From a virus (lineage: Duplodnaviria > Heunggongvirae > Uroviricota > Caudoviricetes), in IMG/VR virus record IMGVR_UViG_3300045988_019467: a stretch of 43,946 nucleotides of DNA. One strand, written 5' to 3'. The number at the start of each line of letters is the position of its first letter. Within the stretch, counting starts at the first letter, position 1. Position numbers and translations under genes: made by a program. Shown piece after piece: positions 1 to 39,033 of the stretch. The notes under the pieces were generated by a model. That model searched no databases, was not told the origin of the DNA, and saw nothing but the letters and a program-made list of their open reading frames with translations.

Positions 1-1145
1 CCCGCGCGGCCACTATGCGTCTCCTGTATCTCATGTTGCGCGAGCGCGGGATAAACACCCTATACACCATGCCTACGTATGACCTGTTGAAGCTGCGCGC
101 CATCCCTGGTGTGGTTGATGACCTGAATATGATGGGGCTTAAGTATGACCTCAACAAATCGGAATACAGTATCCACGTTAAGGGGTACGGTACTATGTTT
201 TTCAGGTCCTATGACAACCCGAACCGTCTAATCGCTTTTGAAGTAGCCCATTCTGTCGCCGATGAACTTGACGTTCTTACTAAAGAACAGGCGTCTCTGG
301 TGTGGCGTAAAATTTCAGAGCGTACCCGACAGCCTTGCAGAGGGGGTAACAGTATTGCTGCTGTGACCACACCTGACCAGGGATTCTCTGGATTTGTGTA
401 TGACTATTGGGTTACTAACGCTGACAGTTCTACGGAACTGATTAAGGCGTCTACATTGTCGAACCCATATTTACCTGAAGGCTACGTCGAACAGATACGC
501 AGGAACTACGACGCGGCTTTGGCTGATATGTATATCAACGGTGAATTTGTCAGTTTGACGGCCAATAAGGTGTATCACTATTTCAAACGAAGCACACATG
601 ACTCCACTCGCACCCTGCAGAATGAAGACGCTCTGCACATAGGGCTGGACTTTAATATAGGCGGATGCTGCGCCACTGTGAGCATTATCGAAGACGGCAA
701 CCCGACGGTTGTTGATGAGTTTGTCAGCCATAATACCGACGACTTCGTCAATAATGTCAGGATACGGTATCCGGGCCATACGGTTACGGTTTACCCTGAC
801 GCCTCTGGTCGCTCAGGCCACACTAACGCATCATTATCCGACATAGGTATCATCGAAAAAGCCGGCTTGCGTGTTAACGCTCCAAGTAAGAACCCATTCG
901 TTAAAGACAGAATAAACGCGGTTAACGCTCTTTTGTCACATAGCCGTTTGAGGGTTAACACTTCAAAATGCCCTAAATTAACACAGTCACTGGAAACGCA
1001 GGGGTATAACGATAATGGTGAGCCGGAGAAGTTTAAAACTCACCCGGCTATTGACGACTGGAACGACAGTTTAGGTTATTGTATGCATAGGTTGTTCCCT
1101 GTCGTCCGCCCGGTTATCAGCACTCCTGTCAGATTCGCACTTTAA
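1..1145 (+). CDS. terL: terminase large subunit, C-terminal part (N-terminal part is 43757..43946 across the circular junction)
   Basis: Frame open from window start and in frame with the ATG at 43757, whose N-terminus has a Walker A P-loop (GLGAGKS); lies between the putative terS and a portal-sized ORF; bases 1..99 duplicate 43848..43946. Confidence 0.8.
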   Translation, partial: RAATMRLLYLMLRERGINTLYTMPTYDLLKLRAIPGVVDDLNMMGLKYDLNKSEYSIHVKGYGTMFFRSYDNPNRLIAFEVAHSVADELDVLTKEQASLVWRKISERTRQPCRGGNSIAAVTTPDQGFSGFVYDYWVTNADSSTELIKASTLSNPYLPEGYVEQIRRNYDAALADMYINGEFVSLTANKVYHYFKRSTHDSTRTLQNEDALHIGLDFNIGGCCATVSIIEDGNPTVVDEFVSHNTDDFVNNVRIRYPGHTVTVYPDASGRSGHTNASLSDIGIIEKAGLRVNAPSKNPFVKDRINAVNALLSHSRLRVNTSKCPKLTQSLETQGYNDNGEPEKFKTHPAIDDWNDSLGYCMHRLFPVVRPVISTPVRFAL

Positions 1146-2678: not shown

Positions 2679-2999
2679 TTATAGCTTAAGTTCTTCCGGC
2701 ACATCCGGCACGGCGTTATATTCCCACCATTCAGAACCATCGTATTCTCCGCGAGAAGACCATGTACCATCTTCGTACCAAATTACCCCGAAGAAGTTTT
2801 GACCGCCATAACCGTTGTGATATTCAAAATCAAGTGCGACCATTAGGCTTTCCCATTCTCCGCGGGAGTAATTCTCCCGCAGGATCCATTTACTCCCCTC
2901 AACGAAACCGTAATCCGCGTCATAGTCTGCAAACCAGGCGCATTTAACTACATCTTTACCATCCAGATGGGCGAGCAACTCTTCTTTAGCATTAATCAT
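2679..2999 (-). CDS. hypothetical small acidic, aromatic-rich protein (moron)
   Basis: 106-aa minus-strand ORF inside the plus-strand head module; strong RBS AAGAGGAAG upstream of ATG 2999; about 22 D/E versus about 8 K/R with many W/Y/F. Confidence 0.55.
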   Translation of the reverse strand: MINAKEELLAHLDGKDVVKCAWFADYDADYGFVEGSKWILRENYSRGEWESLMVALDFEYHNGYGGQNFFGVIWYEDGTWSSRGEYDGSEWWEYNAVPDVPEELKL

Positions 3000-3024
3000 G
3001 TTTTCTTCCTCTTTGCCGTTTAAC

Positions 3025-3056
3025 TGAATAGTACCCTATTATATTGGTGTCTGCAA
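3025..3056 (-). promoter_or_regulatory. class-1 promoter-like element, copy 1 (on minus strand: TTGCAG-N7-TATAAT-AGGGTACTATTCA)
   Basis: Perfect TATAAT on the minus strand about 40 nt upstream of ATG 2999; conserved about 30-bp motif repeated at 5180, 15061, 37806 and 39002, each oriented toward the adjacent operon. Confidence 0.5.
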
Positions 3057-3100
3057 ATATTATTTTTATGCGTTACACTGGCGATACTACAGGAGGGCAC

Positions 3101-4144
3101 ATGAGCTTACTTACATCCCTAATCAGCCACCAGATATGGCTGCAACGCGCCGCATCCGGTGAGGTGAAAGACCTTGCACCGTTTCTTCAGGAAATGCGGG
3201 ACGAAATCAAACGGCAGGTCCTGTTATTCGGCGACGACAGGCGAAGCACCGCGCGACTGAATAAACTGTTACGTGACCTTGAAGAAGCATTAACCGGACT
3301 TACGGGTGACTGGCGGACAAAGCTGACAGAAGACCTTAAGGAACTGGCGGCGTATGAGGCCGAGTGGAACGTAAAGACACTTACCGCCAACGTAGACGCG
3401 GAATTTGTTACGCCTACCGCCGAACAGGTGTGGGCCGCTGCCGAGTTTCAGCCCTTATCGTTAAGCGACAAGCCCGTCGATTTCACGAAACTTATGGAAG
3501 GCTGGGGTGAAACAGAAGTATCACGCCTCGTTACCGGCGTTAAGATGGGCTTTGTCCAGGGCCAGACGACACGGCAGATTATCAAGAGCGTGGTCGGCTC
3601 TGGCGGACTGGCGGACATCTCGGAACGCAATGCAGCTACCGTAATCCGCACTGCGCTGTCTCACGTGTCCAACGAAGCACGCAACGAGACGTACCGCCAG
3701 AACTACGACATCATCGAGAAATACGAATGGGTGTCAACGCTGGACAGCCGTACCAGTACGATTTGCAGAGCCAGAGACGGAATGACGTGGGAAATTGGTA
3801 AAGGGCCGATGCCTCCGGCCCATTTTGGGTGCAGAAGTACCACGGCCCCGGTAATTAGTTCCGAGTTTGACTTCCTCGATAAAGGCGCAAAACGAGCGGC
3901 TAAGGGCGCGGACGGCGGCACTCAGGTAAGCGAAGACACCACTTATTACGAGTTCCTCAAACAACAACCGGCATGGTTTCAGGACCAAGCGCTCGGGCCG
4001 ACCCGCGGTAAGATTTTCCGTAACAGCGGTATATCGCCGGAGGAGTTTCGCGTAATATCTGTAGATGGTTTCGGGAATCCGCTCACGCTTAAGCAGATGG
4101 CGGAACTCGATAAACGTGTTGCCGATTATCTGAAAGGGGAATAA
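3101..4144 (+). CDS. head morphogenesis protein (putative, Mu F / SPP1 gp7-like by position)
   Basis: ORF downstream of portal; start chosen at ATG 3101 with RBS AGGAGGG at 3091..3097; assignment is by synteny and size, not a recognised motif. Confidence 0.5.
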   Translation: MSLLTSLISHQIWLQRAASGEVKDLAPFLQEMRDEIKRQVLLFGDDRRSTARLNKLLRDLEEALTGLTGDWRTKLTEDLKELAAYEAEWNVKTLTANVDAEFVTPTAEQVWAAAEFQPLSLSDKPVDFTKLMEGWGETEVSRLVTGVKMGFVQGQTTRQIIKSVVGSGGLADISERNAATVIRTALSHVSNEARNETYRQNYDIIEKYEWVSTLDSRTSTICRARDGMTWEIGKGPMPPAHFGCRSTTAPVISSEFDFLDKGAKRAAKGADGGTQVSEDTTYYEFLKQQPAWFQDQALGPTRGKIFRNSGISPEEFRVISVDGFGNPLTLKQMAELDKRVADYLKGE

Positions 4145-4633: not shown

Positions 4634-5155
4634 TTATTTAAATCGCGCAGGCATTAACACCATAAAGGCCGTGTTTGAAAATGATATTTTGCATCCTCTG
4701 GTTTGGTCCTGGAAATCGAAACGAGAAATTTCATTTTTGTACGCCTTAGAAATCTTGTACGCGTCTGCCAAATAACGCAGAGTGAACCCTATACTATCGA
4801 CAACACCCGGTGTGATGTGCGCCACGCGTTTCCAGTCAGGAAAGTTTCCTTCTACAACATCTACCGGAAGTGTACATATAAGCGCGCGACTATCGTCATA
4901 GAAAGAAACACTGCCGTTGTCGTGGTCTACCTCTGCGTAGTTAAATTTAGAAGGCTCTCTCCCTTTGATATCAATGAGAACCCCTTTCTCAACGTTTGTC
5001 TTCACATTGTCGCAGAACAATCTATGCCCATTCGTAGACACTATCAACCCCTCAGGTTCTATGTAAAAAGCGTTCAAATAGTAGCGCACATCGTTTTTAG
5101 CCCTGCAGATTTTCGCCCCTACATACGCAGGGAAAGTAATTACCGTAGTAACCAT
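4634..5155 (-). CDS. hypothetical protein (moron, unknown function)
   Basis: 173-aa minus-strand ORF with RBS AGGAGATG before ATG 5155; own promoter-like element and terminator; no motif recognised. Confidence 0.55.
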   Translation of the reverse strand: MVTTVITFPAYVGAKICRAKNDVRYYLNAFYIEPEGLIVSTNGHRLFCDNVKTNVEKGVLIDIKGREPSKFNYAEVDHDNGSVSFYDDSRALICTLPVDVVEGNFPDWKRVAHITPGVVDSIGFTLRYLADAYKISKAYKNEISRFDFQDQTRGCKISFSNTAFMVLMPARFK

Positions 5156-5179: not shown

Positions 5180-5211
5180 TGAATAGTACCCTATTATATT
5201 GGAGTATGCAA
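5180..5211 (-). promoter_or_regulatory. class-1 promoter-like element, copy 2 (on minus strand: TTGCAT-N7-TATAAT-AGGGTACTATTCA)
   Basis: Same motif as 3025..3056; TATAAT on the minus strand about 40 nt upstream of ATG 5155. Confidence 0.5.
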
Positions 5212-6109: not shown

Positions 6110-6811
6110 ATGAATCGTTTTTTACGTTATCCGTTCCAGGAAGAAGCTGGGGCAGAAGATAAAGCTGGTGGCGGTGACGCGCCAAAAATGTTCACAGCCG
6201 AAGAAGTTCAGGCGCTGATTGAGAAAGAAGTCGCCGGTCTTAAGGCTAATCAGGAAGCATTGCTGGCGGAGAAGAAAGAAGCCGCTCGTAAAGCAAAAGA
6301 GGCCGAAGAAGAACGGCAGCGCGCGCACCAGGAGGCACTAAAAGCCGCCGGTAAGATGGACGAGTTCGAAAAGACGATTCGTAGCCAGTATGACCCGGTG
6401 TTAGCCGAGAAAGATGGTCGCATCTCCAAAATGGCGGAGCGCATCCTCGGCAGCGAACGTAAAGCGGTGTTAGGCTCTTTCGCAGGTGACTTCATCACCC
6501 CGGAAGCAGTGGACATTCTTGCACCGTTCGTTAAGACTGAGTTCGAAGGCGATGATGTGGTTACTAAGTTTGTTGGCGCAGATGGCAACGTAATCACGAC
6601 TGACCCTGAACAGTTCCGCAAATACCTGCGCGAACATAAAGCGTTTTCGCATTTGATTAAAGCAAATGCAGCTTCCGGCGGCGGGGCTTCCGGTGGCAAA
6701 GGCGGCGGGGCCGCACCAGCGTTTAAAGACATGAGTGAATCGGAGCGTTTAGCTCTGTATAAATCGAACCCTGCCGAATTTGAACGGCAACTTAAAGCCC
6801 TGAGGAAATAA
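6110..6811 (+). CDS. capsid scaffolding protein (putative)
   Basis: Highly charged, Ala/Glu/Lys-rich, coiled-coil-like protein immediately upstream of the major capsid gene; start taken at ATG 6110. Confidence 0.55.
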   Translation: MNRFLRYPFQEEAGAEDKAGGGDAPKMFTAEEVQALIEKEVAGLKANQEALLAEKKEAARKAKEAEEERQRAHQEALKAAGKMDEFEKTIRSQYDPVLAEKDGRISKMAERILGSERKAVLGSFAGDFITPEAVDILAPFVKTEFEGDDVVTKFVGADGNVITTDPEQFRKYLREHKAFSHLIKANAASGGGASGGKGGGAAPAFKDMSESERLALYKSNPAEFERQLKALRK

Positions 6812-6813
6812 TA

Positions 6814-7863
6814 ATGGCAATTACCACTATCGGCGATATCGTAACTGGCAACATCCCGGTCCTGGCGTCTTATATGACCGAGGACCCGGTGGAAAAAACC
6901 GCGTTCTTTCAGTCCGGTATTCTGACCCCGACTCCGTACGCTGCCGAGATTGCTCGCGGCCCGTCCAACATCGCCAACATTCCTTTCTGGAAAGCGATTG
7001 ATACTTCTATCGAGCCTAACTACTCGAACGATGTGTACCAGGACATTGCAACCCCGCGCAACGTGCAAACCGGCGAGATGATGGCCCGTGTTGCGTACCT
7101 GAACGAAGGTTTTGGTCAGGCGGACCTGACTGTTGAACTTACCAGCCAGAATCCGCTGCAATCCGTGGCTTCTCGTCTGGATAACTTCTGGCAGCGCCAG
7201 GCACAACGCCGTCTGATCGCTACCGCGCTCGGTCTGTACAACGACAACGTAGCCGCTACCGACGCGTACCACGAGCAGAACGACATGGTTGTAGACGTGT
7301 CCGCTACTCTGGGCTTCGATGCTGGCGCGTTCATCGACGCTACCCAGACTATGGGTGATGCACTGATGGGTAACGGTGGTGAAGTGCTGGGCGCTATCGC
7401 TATGCACAGCTTCGTATACGCGCAGGCGCGTAAGCAGCAGCTCATTGACTTCATCAAAGACGCTGACAACGACACCCTGTTTGCCACCTACCAGGGCTAC
7501 CGTGTGATTGTTGACGACAGCATGACCGTAGTCGGCACCGGCGGCAGCCGTAAGTTCATCTCCATCATCTTCGGCAACGGCGCTATCGGTTATGGAGAAG
7601 GTAACCCGACCAATCCGCTGGCATATGAGCGCGAAGAGTCCCGCGGCAACGGCGGTGGCGTCGAAACCCTGTGGACCCGTAAGACATGGTTGCTGCACCC
7701 GTTTGGTTACAGCTTCACCAGCGCGGTGATCACCGGCAACGGCACCGAGACTGTTGCACGCTCCGCTTCCTGGCAGGACCTGGCGAACGCATCCAACTGG
7801 AACCGTGTTGTTGAGCGTAAGCACGTACCGATTGCCTTCCTGGTAACTGGTGTAGGGGCTTAA
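6814..7863 (+). CDS. major capsid protein (putative)
   Basis: 349-aa ORF right after the scaffold-like gene and followed by a terminator hairpin; assignment by synteny and size. Confidence 0.65.
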   Translation: MAITTIGDIVTGNIPVLASYMTEDPVEKTAFFQSGILTPTPYAAEIARGPSNIANIPFWKAIDTSIEPNYSNDVYQDIATPRNVQTGEMMARVAYLNEGFGQADLTVELTSQNPLQSVASRLDNFWQRQAQRRLIATALGLYNDNVAATDAYHEQNDMVVDVSATLGFDAGAFIDATQTMGDALMGNGGEVLGAIAMHSFVYAQARKQQLIDFIKDADNDTLFATYQGYRVIVDDSMTVVGTGGSRKFISIIFGNGAIGYGEGNPTNPLAYEREESRGNGGGVETLWTRKTWLLHPFGYSFTSAVITGNGTETVARSASWQDLANASNWNRVVERKHVPIAFLVTGVGA

Positions 7864-7879
7864 GGTTAAGCTATAATCG

Positions 7880-7907
7880 AGAGGGACTTCGGTCCCTCTT
7901 TTCATTT
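7880..7907 (+). terminator. intrinsic terminator after the capsid gene
   Basis: AGAGGGAC-TTCG-GTCCCTCT stem-loop followed by TTTCATTT. Confidence 0.55.
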
Positions 7908-10842: not shown

Positions 10843-11255
10843 TGGGCTACTTTGAGGACTTAACCAAAGCGTTTGATGTGCCGTTGGTAGCCTTCGGGAA
10901 CGCAAACGGCATCAAGGTTGCGCTTGAAAACATCGACGCGCCGACGTCAACAGATACGCCGTATCTGGCGAGTTACATGTTGCTGGCGGATACGGAACAG
11001 GCGGATTTGTTCTTCACCGAGCAACGCTCTGGTATCTATCAGGTCGACATTAACTACGCATCGGTGAAAGGTAGCGCGCCAATCAATAAAATGGCAGACT
11101 TACTTAACACGGCGTTTAAAGCAGGTAAGTCATTTTCACGTAACGACATCTGCGCCGAGGTTCAATCGGTTAGCCTGGGGCCGCTGATTGTAGAAAACGG
11201 ATGGGCCAAACGACCATTGTCAATTAACTTTATTGCATTCACCAAGAGGCTGTGA
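10842..11255 (+). CDS. tail terminator / tail completion protein (putative)
   Basis: 137-aa ORF immediately upstream of the tail-tube-sized gene. Confidence 0.4.
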   Translation: MGYFEDLTKAFDVPLVAFGNANGIKVALENIDAPTSTDTPYLASYMLLADTEQADLFFTEQRSGIYQVDINYASVKGSAPINKMADLLNTAFKAGKSFSRNDICAEVQSVSLGPLIVENGWAKRPLSINFIAFTKRL

Positions 11256-12424
11256 ATATGGCTACAACTCCTTTTAAGGGCGCGACTACCGCGCAATTCT
11301 ATGTGGCGGAAACTACCCCTGGCGTAACACCGACTAACCCGGTATGGTCGCCGTTGCGTAACACAGGTGGCGTTCCTGCTATTACCCGTGACACGCTGAC
11401 CTCCAACGAACTGGACGGCAGCCGTGAAACTACATCCATCCGAACCGGTAACAAACAGGTTAGCGGTGAATACGCGGTCGAGCTTAGCTCTAAAAGCCAG
11501 GACGACTGGCTGGCGGGTGCTTTAGGCTCTACGTGGCAATCCGGTGTTTCTCTGTCGGGGCTGTCGATTACCGTCGCACCGGTGGGCAAGACGTTCACCC
11601 GTGCCGAAGGTAGCTTTATTACTGACGGTGTGGAAGTAGGCGACCTGATTGCGTTTACTGACTTAACCGGCGATAACGCTAAACCGTTTATTGTTACTGC
11701 GGTAGAGGCACTGGTGGTAACTGGTGCGGGTATTCAACACACTCTGATCGCCGAGACTGCTACTACCGCGGCTAAGACCGGCGACAAACTGGAAACCGGC
11801 AGCCAGTGTAAGACGTTCTCTATTCTCACCTGGTACAAGGGCCAGTGCGGCGGGACAGACGCGTACACGCTTACCAAAGGCGTGGAAGTTTCTGGTTTCA
11901 CTGTTGAACAGGCCGTTAACGCGATGGTGACGGGCAGCTTCCCGTTCATCGGGCGCAGCCAGGAGATTCTTACCGCGGCGCCGTCTGGTTCCGACTTCTC
12001 CTCTGTTACGTTTGGTGACGAGCCGTTCTCCTCGGTTGACGTTTCCGTGTTCGATGGTTCTACGCCGTTGCGTTGCGACAGCCTGACCATCACCAACGAC
12101 AACAGCGCGTCCGCACAGTTCGAACTCGGCAACACTAACGTTGCATTTGTTGAGCGTAGCCGCGCGGCTAACACCTTCTCTATCTCTGGCAAGCTGTACG
12201 ACATGGCGATGATTCAGAAGTTTATCAACGAACAGCAGGTAGAGATTAACTCTATTCTGGCTGGGGTAAACGGGGCTATGTCTTTCAGTTTGAAACGTGC
12301 AGAACTCACGGCGGTCACACCGGAGATTGGCGGACCTGAGTCAATCACTCAGTCTATTGAAGGCCAGGCTACTGGCAACCAGTACCAGTCGTCTATTGTT
12401 ATCCAGCGTATCACCTACGCATAA
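11252..12424 (+). CDS. major tail (tube) protein (putative)
   Basis: 390-aa Thr/Ser/Gly-rich ORF between neck genes and the tail chaperone/tape measure genes; followed by a strong terminator. Confidence 0.5.
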   Translation: MNMATTPFKGATTAQFYVAETTPGVTPTNPVWSPLRNTGGVPAITRDTLTSNELDGSRETTSIRTGNKQVSGEYAVELSSKSQDDWLAGALGSTWQSGVSLSGLSITVAPVGKTFTRAEGSFITDGVEVGDLIAFTDLTGDNAKPFIVTAVEALVVTGAGIQHTLIAETATTAAKTGDKLETGSQCKTFSILTWYKGQCGGTDAYTLTKGVEVSGFTVEQAVNAMVTGSFPFIGRSQEILTAAPSGSDFSSVTFGDEPFSSVDVSVFDGSTPLRCDSLTITNDNSASAQFELGNTNVAFVERSRAANTFSISGKLYDMAMIQKFINEQQVEINSILAGVNGAMSFSLKRAELTAVTPEIGGPESITQSIEGQATGNQYQSSIVIQRITYA

Positions 12425-12428
12425 AACT

Positions 12429-12454
12429 AAGGCCCCGAAAGGGGCCTTTTTCTT
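12429..12454. terminator. bidirectional intrinsic terminator (AAGGCCCC-GAAA-GGGGCCTT + TTTTTCTT)
   Basis: 20-mer identical to 2655..2674 followed by a T-run; separates the tail tube gene from the convergent moron operon. Confidence 0.65.
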
Positions 12455-12629
12455 ACTCACTTTTGAATGCCATTTCGTAGAAGTTAGTTAACTGACCTCT
12501 GTCACTCCGTTCTGTCATCTCTTTTGCGGCCTCTTCCTTGCTACCTACGGCGTAAATATCAACCCACTCATCCCATTCTTCGTCATATACGCGGATAACG
12601 TATATTGTTCCCATTGTGCCTTCACGCAT
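12453..12629 (-). CDS. hypothetical small acidic protein (last gene of moron operon; start uncertain)
   Basis: ORF in frame to 12659; start placed at the internal ATG 12629 to limit overlap with the upstream gene. Confidence 0.35.
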   Translation of the reverse strand: MREGTMGTIYVIRVYDEEWDEWVDIYAVGSKEEAAKEMTERSDRGQLTNFYEMAFKSE

Positions 12630-13191
12630 TTGGGTAAATCCCCAGGATTCTATTAGCAATCGCGGCCGCTGTTAATGTAATCTCGCCTGGGATGACCACA
12701 ACGTCATGACATACCGCACCATCAATACCGTACAGGTAACCACGACTATCCCCGTCAAACGTATAGCCGTCTCTGCGCAAGCGAACGATTTTTACGTCAT
12801 GCCCTGCGGCGACGATAGGGGACACTTCACTGGCGAATCCACCGTCTGACACTACAAAAACGTCATCGCCGTCGGGCAAGTTTTCAGCAAGATACTTACC
12901 GAAATAATCGCCGCCGAGAACCGGTTTAATGAATTGCTCAGAAATGGCAATCATGAACTGACGACGAGACAAACCATTAAGGAAACCCTCTGGCTTTTCT
13001 TTCCGCGCCCGGTCGTCGTAGCCGTCGAGAAACTCGTGGTACGCATCCGGACCTAACGCTGCCAGAGCAATATTGAACATTGGATTTTTGAAACTGGTAG
13101 CACCCTTCGCAAAGCCCATTTCTACCAGCGCCATAGCAAGTGTGTCTTTCCCACAACCCGCCGGGCCATTAAGAATAATTACCTTAGCCAT
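12622..13191 (-). CDS. P-loop kinase (dNMP kinase-like or polynucleotide 5'-kinase-like)
   Basis: N-terminal Walker A GPAGCGKDT resembling phage dNMP kinase and PNK P-loops; translationally coupled to the upstream HAD gene. Confidence 0.55.
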   Translation of the reverse strand: MAKVIILNGPAGCGKDTLAMALVEMGFAKGATSFKNPMFNIALAALGPDAYHEFLDGYDDRARKEKPEGFLNGLSRRQFMIAISEQFIKPVLGGDYFGKYLAENLPDGDDVFVVSDGGFASEVSPIVAAGHDVKIVRLRRDGYTFDGDSRGYLYGIDGAVCHDVVVIPGEITLTAAAIANRILGIYPNA

Positions 13192-13676
13192 TATTTATCG
13201 CTCCCGTGTGATTTTAAGTGTGTAGAATTCCCGTTACAGTCGTATTCAGTAACCGCGTGAGTGGTTATACCGAGTCCGCGGAAATGCTTTATTACCGCCG
13301 GAGAGTCGTCGAATGCGCACAATATTCTTTCCAGCCCGATAGCACGTAACACCTCTTCTTTAATTACGATGTCTTTTCTGTTGTCGTGTTTGCTGCGCAT
13401 GATTAACTGATAAAATTCGACGCGGTGGCGCTGCAACCACATTCTGGTTTCTTTTTCTGCATCATCACTGCGACCAGTTAAAATAATAACGGCGTAGCGA
13501 CGATTAAGGGCGTTACACAGTTCGATGTTATCTCTAATTGGTTCATCATCTTTGCACGCCATGTTAAAGGGTTTCCACGCCCATGTTTCGTTGTAGTTAT
13601 CTTTCGGCAGCAGGTGTAAACGATGTGTACCATCTGCCAATGTTCCATCTAAATCGAAAATTACAATATCTTTCAT
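13191..13676 (-). CDS. HAD-superfamily phosphatase (T4 Pnkp phosphatase-like motif I)
   Basis: N-terminal IVIFDLDGTL (DxDGT catalytic motif I of HAD phosphatases, as in the T4 Pnkp 3'-phosphatase domain). Confidence 0.6.
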   Translation of the reverse strand: MKDIVIFDLDGTLADGTHRLHLLPKDNYNETWAWKPFNMACKDDEPIRDNIELCNALNRRYAVIILTGRSDDAEKETRMWLQRHRVEFYQLIMRSKHDNRKDIVIKEEVLRAIGLERILCAFDDSPAVIKHFRGLGITTHAVTEYDCNGNSTHLKSHGSDK

Positions 13677-14803
13677 CCCAGCATCTCCGGTGAAATAGTT
13701 AAACGTGCGACCTCGCCGTATTCGGCGCTATAAGTAATTACATTTGCACTGCGTCCTGACATCCATCCGCCGCGAGAGGCGTAGGCGTCTTTCGCCGCTA
13801 AGGTGCGGTGTTGCTCAACAATCATGTTACGGCTTTCTACAATCTTCTGGTGGTGCAGGTGGCCTACGTGGGCGTAGCTGTACACGCTTTCGCCAAATGC
13901 TTTGCGGAACTTGGCAATCATAACCGGTTCGATAGCGTCGAATCGTGCTTTATGCCCGTGGTGAAAGAACAACGTCGTTTTGCCGTGTTGCACCATCTTG
14001 TAAACATCCGGCGACGTATCGACGAACACACGCGGCTCATTGTCGTACAGCGTGTTGAACATCTCAGCCAGCCAAATCATACCCGATTCGTCGTGGTTCC
14101 CTTGCACGATAAGCAAGCGAACGGTTTTATGTTTAACAAGCGCCATATCAACAACACGGCGCACCATACGAATCATGTAGCGAACCAGTTTCTGATAGCG
14201 AGTATCGGCGTCCAACACATGGCGCGACTCAGGTGTAACGGCGTCCAGGCTATCGAAGTGAGCAAAGTCACCCAGCAGGTTAATAACCCCGGTTCCCGCA
14301 TCTGGTGCTTTCTGAAACGCCGCATCGAACCAGCGAGAAAACAGGTCTTCCGCAATCTTCATATCCCAGTCGTCGCCGCTCTCGTCAGCCCAGGCCAGCA
14401 TACCGAGATGGAAATCAGATACCGTGTAAAGATTGAGCAGCTTGTCGTCGCGTTTGGTGCGGGCGGCTTTAACAGGCGCAACTGGAGTAATCTCTGACTT
14501 CATGCCCTCGATTACGGCTTTCATCAATTCGACCTGACGTTCGGCATCGGTATCGGTCTTAACCCATTGCAACTTAGTGTTGCCGAACTCGTCCACAAGT
14601 GACGATGTTCCTTTAATCTTGTAGCCGTCCGGCACAAGGTGGCTAACGTCACGCCCATGACCCACGCCTTTCTTCGCCAGCTTCGCTTTACGGATACGAA
14701 TAACGCGGTCTGAGATTCCGTACTTACGTGCGATATCAATAATCTTCATTCCGGCGTTCAATTCTTCCTGTAACTGTTCGTCGGTTATTTTCTTCTGGGC
14801 CAT
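13673..14803 (-). CDS. calcineurin-like metallophosphoesterase with N-terminal HTH domain
   Basis: MPE motifs D-x-H (VSDFHLG), GDxxH (LLGDFAHFD), GNHD (VQGNHDES), HHGH and GHLHH; N-terminal HTH-like segment (IARKYGISDRVIRIRKA); start at ATG 14803 with RBS GAGGAAG. Confidence 0.6.
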   Translation of the reverse strand: MAQKKITDEQLQEELNAGMKIIDIARKYGISDRVIRIRKAKLAKKGVGHGRDVSHLVPDGYKIKGTSSLVDEFGNTKLQWVKTDTDAERQVELMKAVIEGMKSEITPVAPVKAARTKRDDKLLNLYTVSDFHLGMLAWADESGDDWDMKIAEDLFSRWFDAAFQKAPDAGTGVINLLGDFAHFDSLDAVTPESRHVLDADTRYQKLVRYMIRMVRRVVDMALVKHKTVRLLIVQGNHDESGMIWLAEMFNTLYDNEPRVFVDTSPDVYKMVQHGKTTLFFHHGHKARFDAIEPVMIAKFRKAFGESVYSYAHVGHLHHQKIVESRNMIVEQHRTLAAKDAYASRGGWMSGRSANVITYSAEYGEVARLTISPEMLG

Positions 14804-14841
14804 GCTTACTTCCTCGTGTTTAGGATTTGTCTTATAGTAGC

Positions 14842-15033
14842 TTACTTCTCTTTCACGTTCGAGTTGCAAGCCCAGATTAAAATAAATACCCACGGCAGCA
14901 GAACCCAACCAAGAAACAGGTTAGCCATGAATATAGCTAACTTCGCTTTATGGTTACGGAAGTACGCAACCAGGAAAGGTGCGAAATAAGCGAGCAGTGC
15001 AAACAGAATTAAGGAAACTGGTAAACTGGACAT
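14842..15033 (-). CDS. small membrane protein (two predicted TM helices), first gene of moron operon
   Basis: Hydrophobic 63-aa ORF; start taken at ATG 15033 preceded by AAGGGG (an upstream ATG at 15048 is also possible). Confidence 0.4.
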   Translation of the reverse strand: MSSLPVSLILFALLAYFAPFLVAYFRNHKAKLAIFMANLFLGWVLLPWVFILIWACNSNVKEK

Positions 15034-15060
15034 TTTAAACCCCTTCATTGTTGGTGTAAG

Positions 15061-15092
15061 TGAATAGTACCCTATTATATTGGGGTGTGCAA
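15061..15092 (-). promoter_or_regulatory. class-1 promoter-like element, copy 3 (on minus strand: TTGCAC-N7-TATAAT-AGGGTACTATTCA)
   Basis: Same conserved motif; TATAAT on the minus strand about 40 nt upstream of ATG 15033. Confidence 0.5.
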
Positions 15093-15199
15093 GTAATATG
15101 GTAGAATAATTTTGCGCCTAGTGTCGCACACGAAAAGCGGGTGGTTCCCGTCTGGCGCATTTCCTTTAACCAGTAACCTCTTAACCAAAGGATTAAAGA

Positions 15200-15616
15200 A
15201 TGAAACTTTCTGATTTTTATTACGAAGCTGAAGCCGAAAAGGGTGCGCGTATGCCGATACCGTTAAAAGACGGTACCGATTCTGGGGAATGGCTTAATGT
15301 TGTTTCTCCTGAGGCAGACGTTGCCGTTAAGGCTATGCGCGCGTTCACCCTTGCATACCGGGCAGTGTTAGGGAAATTAAAACCGCTTCGTGATAAGTGC
15401 GAAGAGATGAAAGATTTCTCTGAATACAACCTGAAGATGGAAGATGCGGCCACGGACCTTAACCGACAGTTAGCAATTGAATTGATTAACGGGTGGAGCC
15501 TGGACGACGAATTCAATAAAGAGAATCTGAACACACTCCTGACGCAATATAAACGACTCGCGGAACTTGTTGTTGTGTTTCATAACGAACAACTGCGCCA
15601 GTTACAGGAAAAGTAG
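15200..15616 (+). CDS. tail assembly chaperone (gpG-like, putative)
   Basis: 138-aa acidic ORF immediately upstream of the tape measure gene; a -1 frame ORF overlaps its end. Confidence 0.5.
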   Translation: MKLSDFYYEAEAEKGARMPIPLKDGTDSGEWLNVVSPEADVAVKAMRAFTLAYRAVLGKLKPLRDKCEEMKDFSEYNLKMEDAATDLNRQLAIELINGWSLDDEFNKENLNTLLTQYKRLAELVVVFHNEQLRQLQEK

Positions 15617-15981
15617 ACGCGTTGCTCCAGTTCGCTCGTTGGAACTTCATAACCCGCCACAAACGGCGGGAATTTGACAGTATCGCCGACGGGCATAAAG
15701 CCGCGCTAATTGCTATGGGGGTTATGCAAGACGCGCCGGAAGCAACGCAGGACACCGGGCCGGAATGTCCCCCTGAGCTATTAACCACCTTCGAGAAGTA
15801 CCGGGAAATCAAATTTACCCGCCGAGTAGATGACGACGACATCAAGATGTACCCGCGAGAACAGTTACGATGGTCGGATTTAGTGGCGTACAGCACCGTT
15901 TCGGGCCAGAATATAGGCATGTTTGAATCTGACATCATCATGAGCTTAGACGCTATTTTCGAGGGTAGAAACGATGGCTGA
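15586..15981 (+). CDS. candidate -1 frameshift extension of the tail chaperone (gpGT-like)
   Basis: -1 frame is open from 15586 through 15981 and overlaps the chaperone stop; near-canonical slippery heptamer GGAAAAG at 15607..15613 (lambda uses GGGAAAG). Confidence 0.3.
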   Translation, partial: RTTAPVTGKVDALLQFARWNFITRHKRREFDSIADGHKAALIAMGVMQDAPEATQDTGPECPPELLTTFEKYREIKFTRRVDDDDIKMYPREQLRWSDLVAYSTVSGQNIGMFESDIIMSLDAIFEGRNDG

Positions 15982-27600: not shown

Positions 27601-27918
27601 TTATAATTCCTTATATTGTTGGGGTATGTGCTTACTATAATAGTTCGCTATTAGGGTGTCAACCTGTTTTATCGAACCAACGACAAAAACATTTGCACCG
27701 CGTTTACGCATACGCTCATGCTCTCGTAACTGGTGGGGGTCTGGCTTCGTGTTTTCGTCTTTCTTAACCTCGACGAACCAGACGATGCTGTAGGGGAGAA
27801 TTACCAGCAGGTCAGGAGCGCCCACTCTATTTTCGTAGGAAAGTTTACGAACGAGGCCCCCCAGGGCCTCGAATCGCTCTTTTGCGTATTTCTGCACGCG
27901 CCCCTCAGGCGTACTCAT
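27601..27918 (-). CDS. VRR-NUC domain nuclease (PD-(D/E)xK fold)
   Basis: PD...(D/E)xK-like signature (GAPDLLVIL ... VEVKK) in an approximately 105-aa protein; start taken at ATG 27918. Confidence 0.55.
   Translation of the reverse strand: MSTPEGRVQKYAKERFEALGGLVRKLSYENRVGAPDLLVILPYSIVWFVEVKKDENTKPDPHQLREHERMRKRGANVFVVGSIKQVDTLIANYYSKHIPQQYKEL
27623..27662 (-). promoter_or_regulatory. class-2 promoter, copy 7 (minus strand: TTGACACC-N12-TATTATAGT), inside the 3' end of the VRR-NUC CDS
   Basis: Minus-strand TTGACA (plus 27657..27662) and TATAGT (plus 27634..27639) with about 18-bp spacer; near-identical elements at 31214..31242 and 34199..34228. Confidence 0.5.
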
Positions 27919-27994
27919 AATACACACCCCTCACGTTTCGTATGTTCAATCCCGCAGCGCGGACAGATTCGACAGTCTTCTTCGTAGAACCAAT

Positions 27995-28132
27995 AAATTT
28001 TCACTCCATCACCCACAGATAAATTGCGATGAACATGCCCAATACAGCAACCATCATGCTGTATTGACTCTCGTGACAGTAGACACCGGCGGCGAATCCC
28101 GCCAGTACCGCAATAATCAGTTTACTTGGCAT
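27995..28132 (-). CDS. small hydrophobic protein (putative, very short)
   Basis: 45-aa ORF with two hydrophobic segments between the DNA polymerase and VRR-NUC genes; too short for confident calling. Confidence 0.2.
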
Positions 28133-30323
28133 AGCGTTTTAACTCCTGACCTTCTGCTACAAGAGGGAACCCTTCAGCCCACTCAGGCAACGCGCACATT
28201 AATTTTTCCAGTTCAGCCACCGTGTACTCGGGGGTGTCCGGAGTTTCACATACCAGTTCATCGTGTACCGAAAGCACGATGGGGTACCCGCCGCCCTCAA
28301 CATTAATCATCGCATATGCGAGTAAATCACGGCACAGCGCCTGAACAATGTTTTCGCAGGCTTTGCCGCCGTGGGTGTACAGGGTAGTCCATTGACGGGT
28401 TAACTGGTTTTCGCCCTGATACTTGATTCGCACATTCGTATTCACCCGTCCATCTTCATCTGTTTCCTTTGTCACACTAACGCCGATTCCCGGATACGAG
28501 AGGACGCGACCTGACGGCAACTCCATGCATAACCACCAACCAGGAACCTTCCTGCCGGATGAATCAAATTCTACCGTACGCCATATGCGGATAGCCCTTC
28601 CCCCCTTCCTGCGCAAGTGTGCTCCCGCCCAAAATTCACGACCAGGATTACGAACAGCGGCTAAAATTCCGTCTTTAAGGTCGCGCCAGAACGCTACTGT
28701 TTCCGGGTGTGACTCGCGCCACATACGCTTGATTGCGTCGCAGGTACGCCACACCTTCTTGTCCAGAATATACGACGGTCGGTCGTCCTTTTCACCAGGA
28801 TGTGGTGGTCGCTTTGCTTCCTGGATACGCGCCCATTCATAACCACGTGCAGTAGCCGCCCATATATGATCAGGGAAAGTCCCGTCCATTGTTTTTGCCA
28901 TCTCAATAAGGTCAAGACCTAAATTTTTAGCGAACGTAACGAACGCTCCGACGCCCCCCTCGTAGCCGAGGCCAAGCTCGCAGGCCTTGCCTATCTGTCT
29001 GATTTCCTTGAAGTTTTTCTTAATATCATCTGGGTCCATGCCGAACATCTTACCCGCGGTTACACAGTAAATATCAAGGCCGGCGCGGAACGTATCGAGC
29101 GCGGTTTCTTCACCGGCTAGCCACGCTAAACCGCGACCTTCGACGTTAGAATAATCGGCAACAACAAACTTATGTCCTGCTTCCGGTATGATGCAGCTAC
29201 GCACTGTCGACGCCGTTAGCTTGGCTACGTCGAAACGGCGATGAGCACGACCCTTAAGTAACGCAGAAATGCCTTTATCCAGTTCATCATCGTGATAGTA
29301 ACCGCGCGCCAGGTTCTGTGGCTGGAAGCCTTTACCTGCCCATCGCAGGGTACGTTTTGCTCCGCCGTACTGTAAGCAACCGCGGCGTCGGTCGTCCGAA
29401 GAGCGACCCAACAGCAGCGGGTTATATTTCGTTGATGCGGTGGACGCAGCCCCGAGGCGCATTTCGATAATCGCGCGGGCGTCGTCCGGTAAATCGTCGT
29501 TGGCAAGCAGGTCGTTAAGCGTTGACTTCTGCGCGTTGTGGATTCGGTGTGCTGGTGCGAGTTCCCGCAAAATAGGCAGAAAGTCCTTTCCAGTAAGCGA
29601 GCCGCCGTATTTGCGCTGTGCTTCTTCCTGTAACTGCGCTTTGTGTTTCTCCACGGCTTCAATCGCGGCTTCCGCCAGTGCGACGTCAACCTTAAAGCCT
29701 CGGTCGTTGATTAACTGGTCCAGTTCCAGCACACGGTCCTCAAACTCGGAGTTACCCCAACGCGGCAGCTTATGGAAGACTTCACGCATTGCGGTGATGT
29801 CGCTAACGGCGTACTTGATGAACAGCGCCCACTCGTCTGGGTGCGTTTCTGCGGTGTAACGGCGGATTTTGTAGTTCTTCGGTGTTGGTTTAGAGAAACG
29901 CTGAATCAGCGCCTTACCGCGTTTGTCTTTTGCATTGTCCGCGGATACGCCAAGCACTTCGCACAAGGCATCAAGAGAACCCGGCAGCGCGTGACGAAAC
30001 GCCCAAATCATCGTATCAATGGTGTTGCTCACCGGAATATCAAAGTCCCAACAGTGCTTCATGATGAGCCTGTCGAACATTGATCCGTTGTGCCACACCA
30101 TCTTGATACGGCTGTTCGGCTTAACCAGGCGGCGTAGAGCGCGGTGCAAATCCCCCGGCATGTCGCTGCCATCGGTGCAATCCCACACCTGCACAGGCTC
30201 GTCATCGAAAGCATAGGTACAGATTAGCACTTCGGTAGTTGGGTGTTCTGCGTAAGCATAGGAACCGACTTTCTTTAAATCGGCTTCGGAGAATGTTTCA
30301 AAGTCCAGGTATAAGTAGCTCAT
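28122..30323 (-). CDS. DNA polymerase, family A (Pol I-like) with N-terminal 3'-5' exonuclease domain
   Basis: N-terminal exonuclease motif LYLDFETFS (DxE); C-terminal polymerase motif C (VLSVHDELVCE); 733 aa. Confidence 0.8.
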   Translation of the reverse strand: MSYLYLDFETFSEADLKKVGSYAYAEHPTTEVLICTYAFDDEPVQVWDCTDGSDMPGDLHRALRRLVKPNSRIKMVWHNGSMFDRLIMKHCWDFDIPVSNTIDTMIWAFRHALPGSLDALCEVLGVSADNAKDKRGKALIQRFSKPTPKNYKIRRYTAETHPDEWALFIKYAVSDITAMREVFHKLPRWGNSEFEDRVLELDQLINDRGFKVDVALAEAAIEAVEKHKAQLQEEAQRKYGGSLTGKDFLPILRELAPAHRIHNAQKSTLNDLLANDDLPDDARAIIEMRLGAASTASTKYNPLLLGRSSDDRRRGCLQYGGAKRTLRWAGKGFQPQNLARGYYHDDELDKGISALLKGRAHRRFDVAKLTASTVRSCIIPEAGHKFVVADYSNVEGRGLAWLAGEETALDTFRAGLDIYCVTAGKMFGMDPDDIKKNFKEIRQIGKACELGLGYEGGVGAFVTFAKNLGLDLIEMAKTMDGTFPDHIWAATARGYEWARIQEAKRPPHPGEKDDRPSYILDKKVWRTCDAIKRMWRESHPETVAFWRDLKDGILAAVRNPGREFWAGAHLRRKGGRAIRIWRTVEFDSSGRKVPGWWLCMELPSGRVLSYPGIGVSVTKETDEDGRVNTNVRIKYQGENQLTRQWTTLYTHGGKACENIVQALCRDLLAYAMINVEGGGYPIVLSVHDELVCETPDTPEYTVAELEKLMCALPEWAEGFPLVAEGQELKRYAK

Positions 30324-37805: not shown

Positions 37806-37838
37806 CTTGCGCACCCCAACATAATAGGATACTATTCA
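37806..37838 (+). promoter_or_regulatory. class-1 promoter-like element, copy 4 (TTGCGC-N7-CATAAT-AGGATACTATTCA)
   Basis: Same motif as the minus-strand copies, here on the + strand about 45 nt upstream of ATG 37870. Confidence 0.5.
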
Positions 37839-39001: not shown

Positions 39002-39033
39002 TTGCACACTGGGATAGAATAGGCTACTATTCA
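39002..39033 (+). promoter_or_regulatory. class-1 promoter-like element, copy 5 (TTGCAC-N7-TAGAAT-AGGCTACTATTCA)
   Basis: Same motif; + strand, about 45 nt upstream of ATG 39062 and just after the terminator. Confidence 0.5.

Follow-up and report, generated by a model that had tools for sequence, protein, structure and literature searches.

What does a phage gain from five genes that run backwards through its tail gene module? The question is raised by the DNA analysed here (the window, a stretch of 43,946 nucleotides), which is the near-complete genome of a Kagunavirus, a K1G-like coliphage. The initial annotation had read these genes as a moron whose kinase and phosphatases might heal nucleic acid ends cleaved by the host, and had named work on the nucleotide pool by a deoxynucleoside monophosphate (dNMP) kinase and a nucleotidase as the alternative. 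It is the alternative that the evidence favours. On balance, we lean towards the view that the cassette is a conserved Kagunavirus operon that combines DNA and nucleotide metabolism, in the form of dNMP salvage, with superinfection immunity. This view is built on the families and folds assigned to the proteins, on their intact active-site motifs, on synteny, on the lack of repair partners, and on the published behaviour of a homologous dNMP kinase.

The layout of the locus is clear. The ORFs, together with the Pfam matches of the flanking genes (Table 1), confirm a block of five minus-strand genes with the tail tube gene on one side and the tail chaperone genes on the other; the latter occupy two frames, for which the K1G annotation gives a CDS joined by frameshift. 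When sought in related phages, the same cassette was found, annotated, in EcoPhCCP1, which is 96% identical to the window, and an equivalent order of the enzyme genes was found in phage VAC2. Successive genes overlap by 4 nt (metallophosphoesterase, MPE, and HAD phosphatase), 1 nt (HAD and kinase) and 8 nt (kinase and small ORF), and these junctions are consistent with an operon in which translation would be coupled. For the MPE gene, a 411-aa ORF starting at a TTG was dropped in view of the 376-aa annotation in K1G and EcoPhCCP1. The GC content drops slightly, from 0.53 in the flanks to 0.48-0.50 in the cassette, across which the GC skew is negative.

Table 1. Features of the cassette, its flanks and its putative regulatory elements, in window coordinates.
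Feature	Position	Strand	Remarks
Tail tube protein gene (flank)	11252-12424	+	PF18906, 3e-40
Bidirectional intrinsic-terminator-like hairpin	12429-12448	both	8-bp stem, 6 GC pairs, 4-nt loop
Small acidic ORF, variable accessory gene	12453-12629	-	53-58 aa (58 aa in EcoPhCCP1)
Predicted P-loop dNMP kinase (DNK)	12622-13191	-	189 aa, Walker A GPAGCGK15D
HAD phosphatase, stand-alone, Pnkp type	13191-13676	-	161 aa
HTH-MPE	13673-14803	-	376 aa, start as annotated in K1G and EcoPhCCP1
Imm-like small membrane protein, putative superinfection immunity family	14842-15033	-	63 aa
Promoter-like element ('class 1')	15064-15092	-	TTGCAC-N17-TACTAT
Further copies of the promoter-like element	3028-3056, 5183-5211, 37807-37835, 39002-39030	-, -, +, +	conserved spacer
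Tail assembly chaperone pair (flank)	15200-15616, 15622-15981	+	PF08748 and PF23812

At the sequence level, both regulatory signals that had been described for the cassette, a promoter-like element of its own and a two-way terminator, were recovered. The promoter-like element occurs in five copies in the window, all with a conserved spacer, and its 20-nt core is identical upstream of the cassette in K1G, in EcoPhCCP1 and in 10 of 15 Kagunavirus metagenome loci; a simple sigma-70 scan missed it because its -35 hexamer matches at 3 of 6 positions. The cassette, placed backwards within the tail gene module, would probably be transcribed by the host polymerase. A hairpin with T-rich tails on both strands separates the tail tube gene from the end of the cassette. 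A U-rich tract following the int-alpA structure was also considered as a terminator and rejected, as the tract is not conserved among relatives. The term moron is only partly apt: the promoter-like element and the terminator hairpin agree with it, but the cassette is conserved across the subfamily and seems not to be a recent insertion. All Guernseyvirinae genomes that we checked have at least the MPE gene at this site, and the cassette as a whole is a common phage operon that has already been annotated. The tube and chaperone genes of VAC2 are adjacent, but they have diverged so far that they barely or do not align to those of the window.

The two outer genes are of different kinds. The first encodes a putative superinfection-immunity membrane protein, which carries the Pfam domain of the T4 Imm type (PF14373 Imm_superinfect, 9e-13, 48.3 bits; cut-off 27.9) and matches phrog_1039 (5e-23). 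We place its start at the second ATG with its ribosome-binding site AAGGGG, and K1G and EcoPhCCP1 annotate the gene likewise. The last gene, the small acidic ORF, has no match in Pfam, PHROG, NCBIfam or PADLOC; it is found only in 23 Kagunavirus-type records, with 61-98% amino-acid identity, and is absent from K1G.

The motifs that the initial annotation had named for the three enzymes were all located in the predicted proteins. PDB searches, with single sequences as well as profiles, gave nothing significant beyond the P-loop for the kinase and only HTH matches for the MPE, so that fold prediction was needed for both proteins. The kinase, whose Walker A motif GPAGCGKDT spans residues 9-17, is predicted to adopt the fold of gp1-type dNMP kinases with a P-loop of the type GxxxxGKD; T4 gp1 is its closest match, and its viral fold neighbours, where named, are nearly all dNMP kinases. 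It also matches phrog_139 (4e-44). Its tie to kinases that have been tested experimentally runs via the Klebsiella phage VAC2, to whose P-loop gene it is 49% identical (1e-41); we infer that this gene is the tested VAC2 DNK, because it is the sole P-loop kinase candidate annotated in the examined 50 kb of VAC2. The VAC2 DNK has been reported as a trigger of Kongming, a defence that senses dNMP kinases, and R1DNK of phage Rao1, which was described in the same study, phosphorylated dAMP, dGMP, dCMP and dTMP, needed Lys15 for doing so, and upon deletion lowered dATP. Sequence and model together thus predict a phage dNMP kinase of the T4 gp1 type.

The HAD protein, with its motif FDLDGTL at residues 7-13, is by family a true Pnkp-type phosphatase with an intact set of catalytic residues. 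It matches PF25109 HAD_PNKP (3e-19, 69.9 bits; cut-off 27.6), in the PDB it is matched best by Pnkp1 (4xrp) and the phosphatase domain of T4 Pnk, and its residues D8, D10, T67, K106, D123 and D124 correspond to D165, D167, S211, K258, D277 and D278 of the T4 enzyme. A stand-alone HAD that is 41% identical is encoded by Krischvirus FL38 immediately 3' of nrdA-nrdB; an RNA ligase gene lies in the same stretch of that genome, which at another place has one further, weaker HAD match. A more distant relative is Dmp of phage T5, a 5'-dNMP phosphatase that also belongs to the HAD proteins and shares the DLDGT...HR cap motif: with the family HMM, a T4-like Pnkp reaches 58 bits and T5 Dmp 19.6 bits. 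Given this distant kinship, the substrate of the HAD protein could differ from the 3'-phosphates that we propose below.

All five motifs of the MPE are present (D130xH132, G178D179, G235N236H237D238, H282/H284 and G314H315xH317), and D130, H132, G178, D179, N236, H237, H282, G314 and H317 are invariant among 57 diverse homologues. The protein scores below the Pfam thresholds (Metallophos_2, 22.2 against 27; Metallophos, 19.2 against 21.5), belonging to a divergent family without a Pfam model of its own, and its membership of the calcineurin-like superfamily follows from motifs and fold. The fusion of an HTH to an MPE, as claimed before, is borne out by a three-helix HTH at residues ~1-45, a low-confidence linker at ~46-117 and the catalytic domain at ~118-376. 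The fold matches are led by Mre11 and SbcD, which may point to a generic Mre11/SbcD-like fold; the homologue searches gave proteins 96-100% identical to the query and one further clade brought in via p044 of Rhizobium phage 16-3, so that the alignment is shallow, and the model is only moderately confident. A test for the lambda-phosphatase branch (fold, and motif II GDxxDRG) was negative, and neither lambda phosphatase nor CthPnkp appears among the top 60 fold matches. Neither the window nor the annotation of EcoPhCCP1 has a gene for an ATPase of the Rad50/SbcC type, and a literature search on the metallophosphoesterase of the Drexlerviridae returned nothing.

These assignments bear on the proposal that the cassette is a split Pnkp-like module, with a 5'-kinase, a 3'-phosphatase and a 2',3'-cyclic phosphodiesterase that mend tRNA or nucleic acid ends cut by a host defence. 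The HAD protein, being truly of the Pnkp type and catalytically intact, would suit such a module; in 60 of 80 related viral loci it is encoded 5' of the kinase and on the strand of the latter, a pairing that may be read as a split Pnkp, and in the T1-like phage Tls a stp-like gene is annotated near pnkP and dmk. Bacterial Pnkp/Hen1 also uses an MPE as its phosphatase (PMC3675462, PMC2190708), which counts in the same direction. The kinase, however, is closest in fold to dNMP kinases and related to the putative tested DNK of VAC2, and it aligns to the kinase domain of T4 Pnkp across the 25-column P-loop only, with no homology to Pnkp-type 5'-kinases. The MPE is not near the branch of CthPnkp and lambda phosphatase, the gene order is opposite to that of Pnkp, and the genome has neither an RNA or DNA ligase (judging by the ORFs scanned with PHROG and by the annotation of EcoPhCCP1) nor tRNA genes. 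Moreover, unless a 5'-kinase accompanied it, a 3'-phosphatase would work against ligation by the host RtcB. An RNA-repair module for counter-defence would have been a notable find, but the evidence says otherwise: with a dNMP-kinase fold and without ligase and tRNA genes, the proposed action against anticodon nucleases does not hold up, and we consider end healing very unlikely.

If the cassette serves dNMP salvage instead, the gene order MPE, HAD, kinase would correspond to a line that leads from host DNA to dNTPs. The HTH-MPE would act as a two-metal phosphodiesterase that is anchored on DNA through the HTH, most likely as a DNA nuclease in host DNA degradation or end processing. The HAD protein would most likely strip 3'-phosphates off DNA ends or 3'-phosphorylated deoxynucleotides, and so let breakdown products join the 5'-dNMP pool; the kinase would convert dNMPs into dNDPs, and the host NDK would turn these into dNTPs for phage replication. 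The phage consumes dNTPs, since genes for a DNA polymerase, a helicase-primase and an exonuclease of its own lie in the window. In this scheme we infer the substrates of the HAD protein and the MPE as well as the sharing of one pathway by all three enzymes. The reason for a 3'-phosphatase is not obvious, because nucleases of the Mre11 type leave 3'-OH ends. Deletion of the Rao1 DNK did not reduce fitness in the laboratory, an observation that counts against salvage.

A number of host defences respond to molecules derived from dNMPs. Kongming makes dITP from dAMP with the phage's own DNK, and the PUA-Cal-HAD system senses m6-dAMP freed from degraded host DNA. The HAD protein, as a Dmp-like enzyme, and/or the MPE might therefore clear nucleotide signals, their precursors or cyclic messengers, and thereby shield a phage that depends on its DNK. 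T5 Dmp, whose motif the HAD protein shares, blocks Kongming through removal of dAMP, Dmp homologues co-occur with DNKs, HAD and DNK are strongly linked in the related viral loci, and PUA-Cal-HAD itself shows an MPE and a HAD protein as a two-enzyme deoxynucleotide phosphatase cascade. On the other hand, the profile score of the HAD protein for T4 Pnkp far exceeds that for Dmp, and a kinase and a 5'-phosphatase that are co-translated and act on the same dNMPs would run a futile cycle. NCBIfam and PADLOC searches gave nothing useful, with no match to PADLOC or anti-defence families. Furthermore, among 93 coliphages Kongming sensitivity follows the presence of a DNK, except in T5-like phages, which are resistant; since this panel includes BASEL phages, and since the Tls-like loci that we checked carry HAD ~1-2 kb upstream of DNK, the HAD protein appears, by this indirect argument, to be non-protective. 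We regard a counter-defence role of this kind as distinctly improbable. Also improbable is a combination in which the tightly linked HAD-DNK pair goes beyond salvage and manages a dNMP alarm pool, with HAD shielding the kinase, and the widespread HTH-MPE is the host-DNA-degrading nuclease of T1-, Jersey- and Dhillon-like siphoviruses; the background is that host defences turn dNMPs derived from host DNA into alarm signals (dITP for Kongming, m6-dAMP for PUA-Cal-HAD).

The three enzymes need not form one pathway, because the MPE stands without HAD or kinase in four genomes that we checked (Jerseyvirus AG11, a Dhillonvirus, the T1-like SRT8 and a Vibrio phage) and the kinase lacks both partners in 20 of the 80 viral loci. 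It is possible, if unlikely, that the genes are functionally unrelated and merely co-transcribed, the HTH-MPE having a role of its own (as a DNA-binding regulator, in end processing during replication or recombination, or in lysis timing) and HAD-DNK being a separate nucleotide module that landed beside it. The MPE gene is near-core beside holin-endolysin-spanin in the Drexlerviridae (508 of 522), and lone MPE genes in Jerseyvirus, Dhillonvirus, SRT8 and Vibrio phages often adjoin lysis genes; the HAD-DNK pair lies apart from the MPE in 36 of its 60 loci, for example in the early region of Tls, and the first gene of the operon encodes an unrelated membrane protein. Against such independence, the order MPE, HAD, kinase, which is found in 24 of the 80 viral loci and also in VAC2, recurs with overlapping stop and start codons in two siphovirus groups, and the five invariant MPE motifs imply an enzyme and not a DNA binder only. 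The two groups appear only distantly related, their tail genes being barely alignable.

The remaining value of the cassette is modest but real. Neither the HTH-MPE fusion nor the HAD/kinase arrangement is unusual, contrary to the initial annotation: the HTH-MPE family is very large, comprising >4,500 clusters when grouped at 50% identity and turning up in 2,038 phage records, and the HAD-kinase pair is the predominant arrangement among the loci counted above. In three groups of therapeutic coliphages the HTH-MPE gene almost belongs to the core, and as phage dNMP kinases trigger Kongming, knowing which phages carry them helps predict host range.

Several known systems resemble the cassette in part. 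The phosphatase domain of T4 Pnkp/PseT and Capnocytophaga Pnkp1 is homologous to the HAD protein, with which it shares the nucleophile and acid of DxDxT, the S/T and K residues and the DD pair of metal ligands, although a Ser occupies the place of T4 R279 here; the cassette has no kinase domain of the Pnkp type, and its kinase is of a different family and is encoded by a separate gene downstream, without a ligase partner. The CthPnkp system (bacterial Pnkp/Hen1) combines a kinase with an MPE phosphatase, but the cassette has no ligase and no Hen1, its kinase is a predicted dNMP kinase and its MPE is not close to the CthPnkp branch. T4 gp1 is larger than the kinase (240 aa against 189 aa) and 18% identical to it. 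With Mre11/SbcD the MPE shares the two-metal core, but an N-terminal HTH replaces the capping domain and the Rad50/SbcC partner is missing. Gp48, an early MPE of Cluster A mycobacteriophages, degrades host DNA (PMC12287305) and may serve as a precedent for the role proposed for the HTH-MPE. In T5, the pre-early pair of Dmp and A1 unites a nucleotide phosphatase of the HAD class with what may be an MPE, close to host-DNA breakdown, for which A1 is needed, but Dmp acts on 5'-dNMPs and its profile similarity to the HAD protein is weak. Inspection of A1 by eye shows DxH, xD, xNHD, HGH and GHxH in MPE order; profile comparisons were not significant, and A1 was rejected as a relative of the HTH-MPE and kept as an analogy only. 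A further parallel is found in the Drexlerviridae, where a 'DNA repair exonuclease' is most commonly followed by PNK and dNMP kinase beside the lysis cassette (PMC13164509). Their block, as in VAC2, has these three families too, and in an unchanged order (identities of 41% for the MPE and 59% for HAD, besides that given above for the kinase); it lies upstream of holin-endolysin-spanin, whereas the cassette is reversed inside the tail module, headed by the Imm-like gene and ended by the small acidic ORF.

The window spans approximately the entire genome, 43,946 bases, of a siphovirus of the K1G/Jersey type (Guernseyvirinae, Kagunavirus), and its region 12300-15250 is matched by 341 phage records. 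The top match, Escherichia phage EcoPhCCP1, covers 100% of the query at 96.2% identity, and K1G and its relatives share about 91% identity over 90% of the region. In agreement with the initial annotation, five minus-strand ORFs are flanked here by the tail tube gene on one side and by the tail assembly chaperone genes, a two-frame pair, on the other; in 5' to 3' order they encode an Imm-like protein, a metallophosphoesterase fused to a helix-turn-helix (HTH-MPE), a HAD phosphatase, a kinase and a small protein. The start of the HTH-MPE gene was corrected to the ATG at 14803, which makes the protein 376 aa long, and for the Imm-like gene a start at 15033 is the most probable. Each junction among the last four genes is an overlap, as is expected of an operon. 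The regulatory elements described for the block were also recovered: a putative promoter, TTGCAC-N17-TACTAT, is present at 15064-15092 as one of five copies with a conserved spacer, and relatives carry an identical 20-nt core at the same position; at 12429-12448 there is a hairpin flanked by T-rich tails on both strands, which would fit a bidirectional terminator. The fifth ORF, encoding an acidic product of 53-58 aa, is a variable accessory gene: only 23 Kagunavirus-type records carry it (61-98% amino-acid identity), and it is absent from K1G.

Elsewhere in the window, a 551-aa ORF at 6250-7905 (-) overlaps the scaffold and major head genes on the opposite strand and is probably not a gene. 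The K1G annotation contains joined (frameshifted) CDSs for a Neck1-like pair and for the tail assembly chaperone pair, and matching two-ORF arrangements occur in the window at 10010-10450/10447-10842 (Neck1-like) and 15200-15616/15622-15981 (chaperone).

The promoter class of the cassette is shared with two other reversed islands and with a rightward block of small genes that is followed by holin and endolysin genes (see the table). Plus-strand transcription may start anew at weak TGTTGGAATAA sites (5254 and 6038, +). A match to the int-alpA RNA lies in the intergenic stretch that separates the cassette promoter from the divergently oriented tail chaperone gene. Since TGGTAGAAT at 15099-15107, a conserved extended -10-like TGnTAGAAT, lies just 5' of this structure, the chaperone/tape-measure mRNA may have the structure as its 5' end. 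Conservation of the int-alpA region is 90-98% among Kagunavirus loci and 79% in Jerseyvirus AG11, and RNAalifold returned the same three helices, with compensatory changes in three pairs, all from AG11. In EcoPhCCP1 a 37-aa ORF, probably spurious, is annotated here.

Other class-1 promoter copies (TTGCAC-N17-TACTAT), reversed islands and the RNA match in the window
Feature	Coordinates	Strand	Remarks
Class-1 promoter copy	3028-3056	-	conserved spacer
Class-1 promoter copy	5183-5211	-	conserved spacer
Class-1 promoter copy	37807-37835	+	conserved spacer
Class-1 promoter copy	39002-39030	+	conserved spacer
Reversed island in plus-strand structural module	2679-2999	-	phrog_3972, headed by class-1 promoter
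Reversed island in plus-strand structural module	4634-5155	-	phrog_3007, annotated RusA-like, headed by class-1 promoter
int-alpA RNA (Rfam RF02996)	15111-15175	+	36.6 bits vs gathering score 35.8

We lean, with modest confidence, towards the view that the cassette as a whole is a DNA- and nucleotide-metabolism operon with a superinfection-immunity gene at its head. The HTH-MPE would cut DNA, the HAD phosphatase would strip DNA ends or deoxynucleotides of 3'-phosphates, and the kinase would convert dNMPs to dNDPs; the gene order MPE, HAD, kinase would then describe a salvage line from host DNA to dNTPs. The kinase step is the best supported of these. No Pfam domain scored above threshold on the kinase; it matches PHROG 139, "dNMP kinase", at 4e-44. 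In an alignment of 44 homologues the P-loop ILNGPxGxGK(D) is invariant and further motifs are conserved. The AlphaFold model is confident (pLDDT 92.5), and its named neighbours among predicted viral structures are mostly dNMP kinases. A preprint on the Kongming defence reports that it is triggered by phage dNMP kinases, that R1DNK acts on dAMP, dGMP, dCMP and dTMP and needs Lys15, and that the dNMP kinase of Klebsiella phage vB_KpnS-VAC2 likewise triggers Kongming. In the window kinase, too, the catalytic lysine is residue 15. The gene order in VAC2 is phosphoesterase, "polynucleotide kinase" and P-loop "NTP hydrolase", and the window proteins share 41% (MPE), 59% (HAD) and 49% (kinase) identity with their VAC2 counterparts. 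We infer that the VAC2 kinase compared here is the one tested against Kongming, since the annotation of the 50 kb of VAC2 examined contains no other P-loop kinase candidate.

The initial annotation had suggested that the block may be an end-healing counter-defence module, and had itself named a plain dNMP kinase as the finding that would speak against this. The PHROG 139 match, the fold neighbours and the 49% identity to VAC2 point to just such an enzyme. In a profile comparison with T4-like Pnkp, only a 25-column P-loop segment of the kinase could be aligned. No tRNA genes were found in the window, and neither its ORFs nor the annotated genes of the 96%-identical relative include an RNA or DNA ligase. 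All window ORFs of >250 aa were assigned to structural or replication functions, and the genome encodes a DNA polymerase, a helicase-primase, a helicase, an exonuclease, a Gp2.5-like SSB and a methyltransferase. It is likely that the kinase is of the dNMP type and that the block is no end-healing system, and we hold this more firmly than the overall picture; end healing itself, for which the Pnkp-type phosphatase would be the natural argument, appears very improbable. As a separate observation, residues 445-538 within the DNA polymerase ORF (28122-30323, -) match PHROG 93, "endonuclease", as does a 108-aa ORF downstream of it (27601-27927, -).

The HAD phosphatase proved to be of the true Pnkp type (Pfam HAD_PNKP, 69.9 bits vs a cut-off of 27.6), and on sequence grounds its assignment to this family is clear. 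Its closest solved relatives are Capnocytophaga Pnkp1 and the phosphatase domain of T4 Pnk. D8 and D10 (nucleophile and acid) align with T4 D165 and D167, the phosphate-contacting T67 and K106 with S211 and K258, and the metal ligands D123 and D124 with D277 and D278. Its gene lies upstream of the kinase gene, on the same strand, in 60 of 80 kinase-bearing IMG/VR loci, which are non-independent samples. In Krischvirus FL38, a 41%-identical stand-alone HAD gene directly follows nrdA-nrdB (L093, the FL38 record, 2998-3474), overlapping the nrdB stop codon. Both contexts favour nucleotide or DNA metabolism over RNA repair. An RNA ligase gene is present in the same FL38 stretch, about 2 kb downstream of the HAD gene, and a second, weaker HAD match is located elsewhere in that genome.

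The three enzymes can occur apart, which would suit a block of unrelated genes on a shared transcript; we regard this as unlikely, though the least so of the alternatives. In Jerseyvirus AG11 the corresponding site of the tail module holds the MPE alone, with small genes on either side, and in a Dhillonvirus, the T1-like SRT8 and Vibrio phages the MPE adjoins lysis genes without HAD and kinase. Among the same 80 non-independent loci, 20 have no HAD within 6 kb, and 24 contain the complete MPE, HAD, kinase string. In Drexlerviridae, PNK and dNMP kinase are the commonest genes directly after the exonuclease (PMC13164509), and in the T1-like phage Tls pnkP and dmk lie about 1 kb apart in the early region. 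The stretches concerned in the Tls record (L004) are 1865-1945, 3132-3695 and 4681-5139; in that early region pnkP (HAD) and dmk (kinase) are accompanied by an stp-like gene, annotated as a putative "activator of host PrrC lysyl-tRNA endonuclease".

At 50% identity the HTH-MPE family forms 4,582 clusters with E ≤ 1e-3 (1,137 at E ≤ 1e-30); 2,038 of 50,697 phage records contain a member, with a length of about 370-420 aa in most of the best 150 hits listed. Generic Pfam MPE models scored below their cut-offs, and no solved structure was detectable by sequence search. Across 57 diverse members no variation occurs in any of the five metallophosphoesterase motifs, and the protein is therefore predicted to be an active enzyme. 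The N-terminus is a generic three-helix HTH whose hits vary by family member (Sigma70_r4, GerE, HTH_23, HTH_28 and other HTH families). Because homologue searches gave shallow alignments, confidence in the structure model is only moderate (pLDDT 69). From its fold ranking and the DNA-binding fusion, a nuclease is a reasonable inference, and an early-expressed mycobacteriophage MPE that breaks down host DNA in vivo and in vitro (PMC12287305) provides a precedent.

GenBank records and the 2026 Drexlerviridae paper (PMC13164509) already contain these genes, in this order and with their usual annotations, and the kinase family has already been tested elsewhere. Phage T5 offers an analogy; its record (L011) has the genes of Dmp and A1 noted as a pair, 124-858 (-)/1706-3376 (-). 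A1 is needed for host DNA degradation, and its C-terminal half shows DxH, xD, SNHD, HGH and GHTH in metallophosphoesterase order; profile matches between A1 and the window MPE family were not significant. Dmp, a 5'-dNMP phosphatase that blocks Kongming, might suggest that the cassette clears nucleotide signals or precursors. We consider this quite unlikely: the HAD family HMM (59 sequences) gives T4-like Pnkp 58 bits and Dmp only 19.6. Dmp is also a HAD protein, with a DLDGT...HR motif like that of the window HAD and D22 as its nucleophile, but the substrates differ, T4 Pnkp acting on 3'-phosphates and Dmp on 5'-dNMPs.
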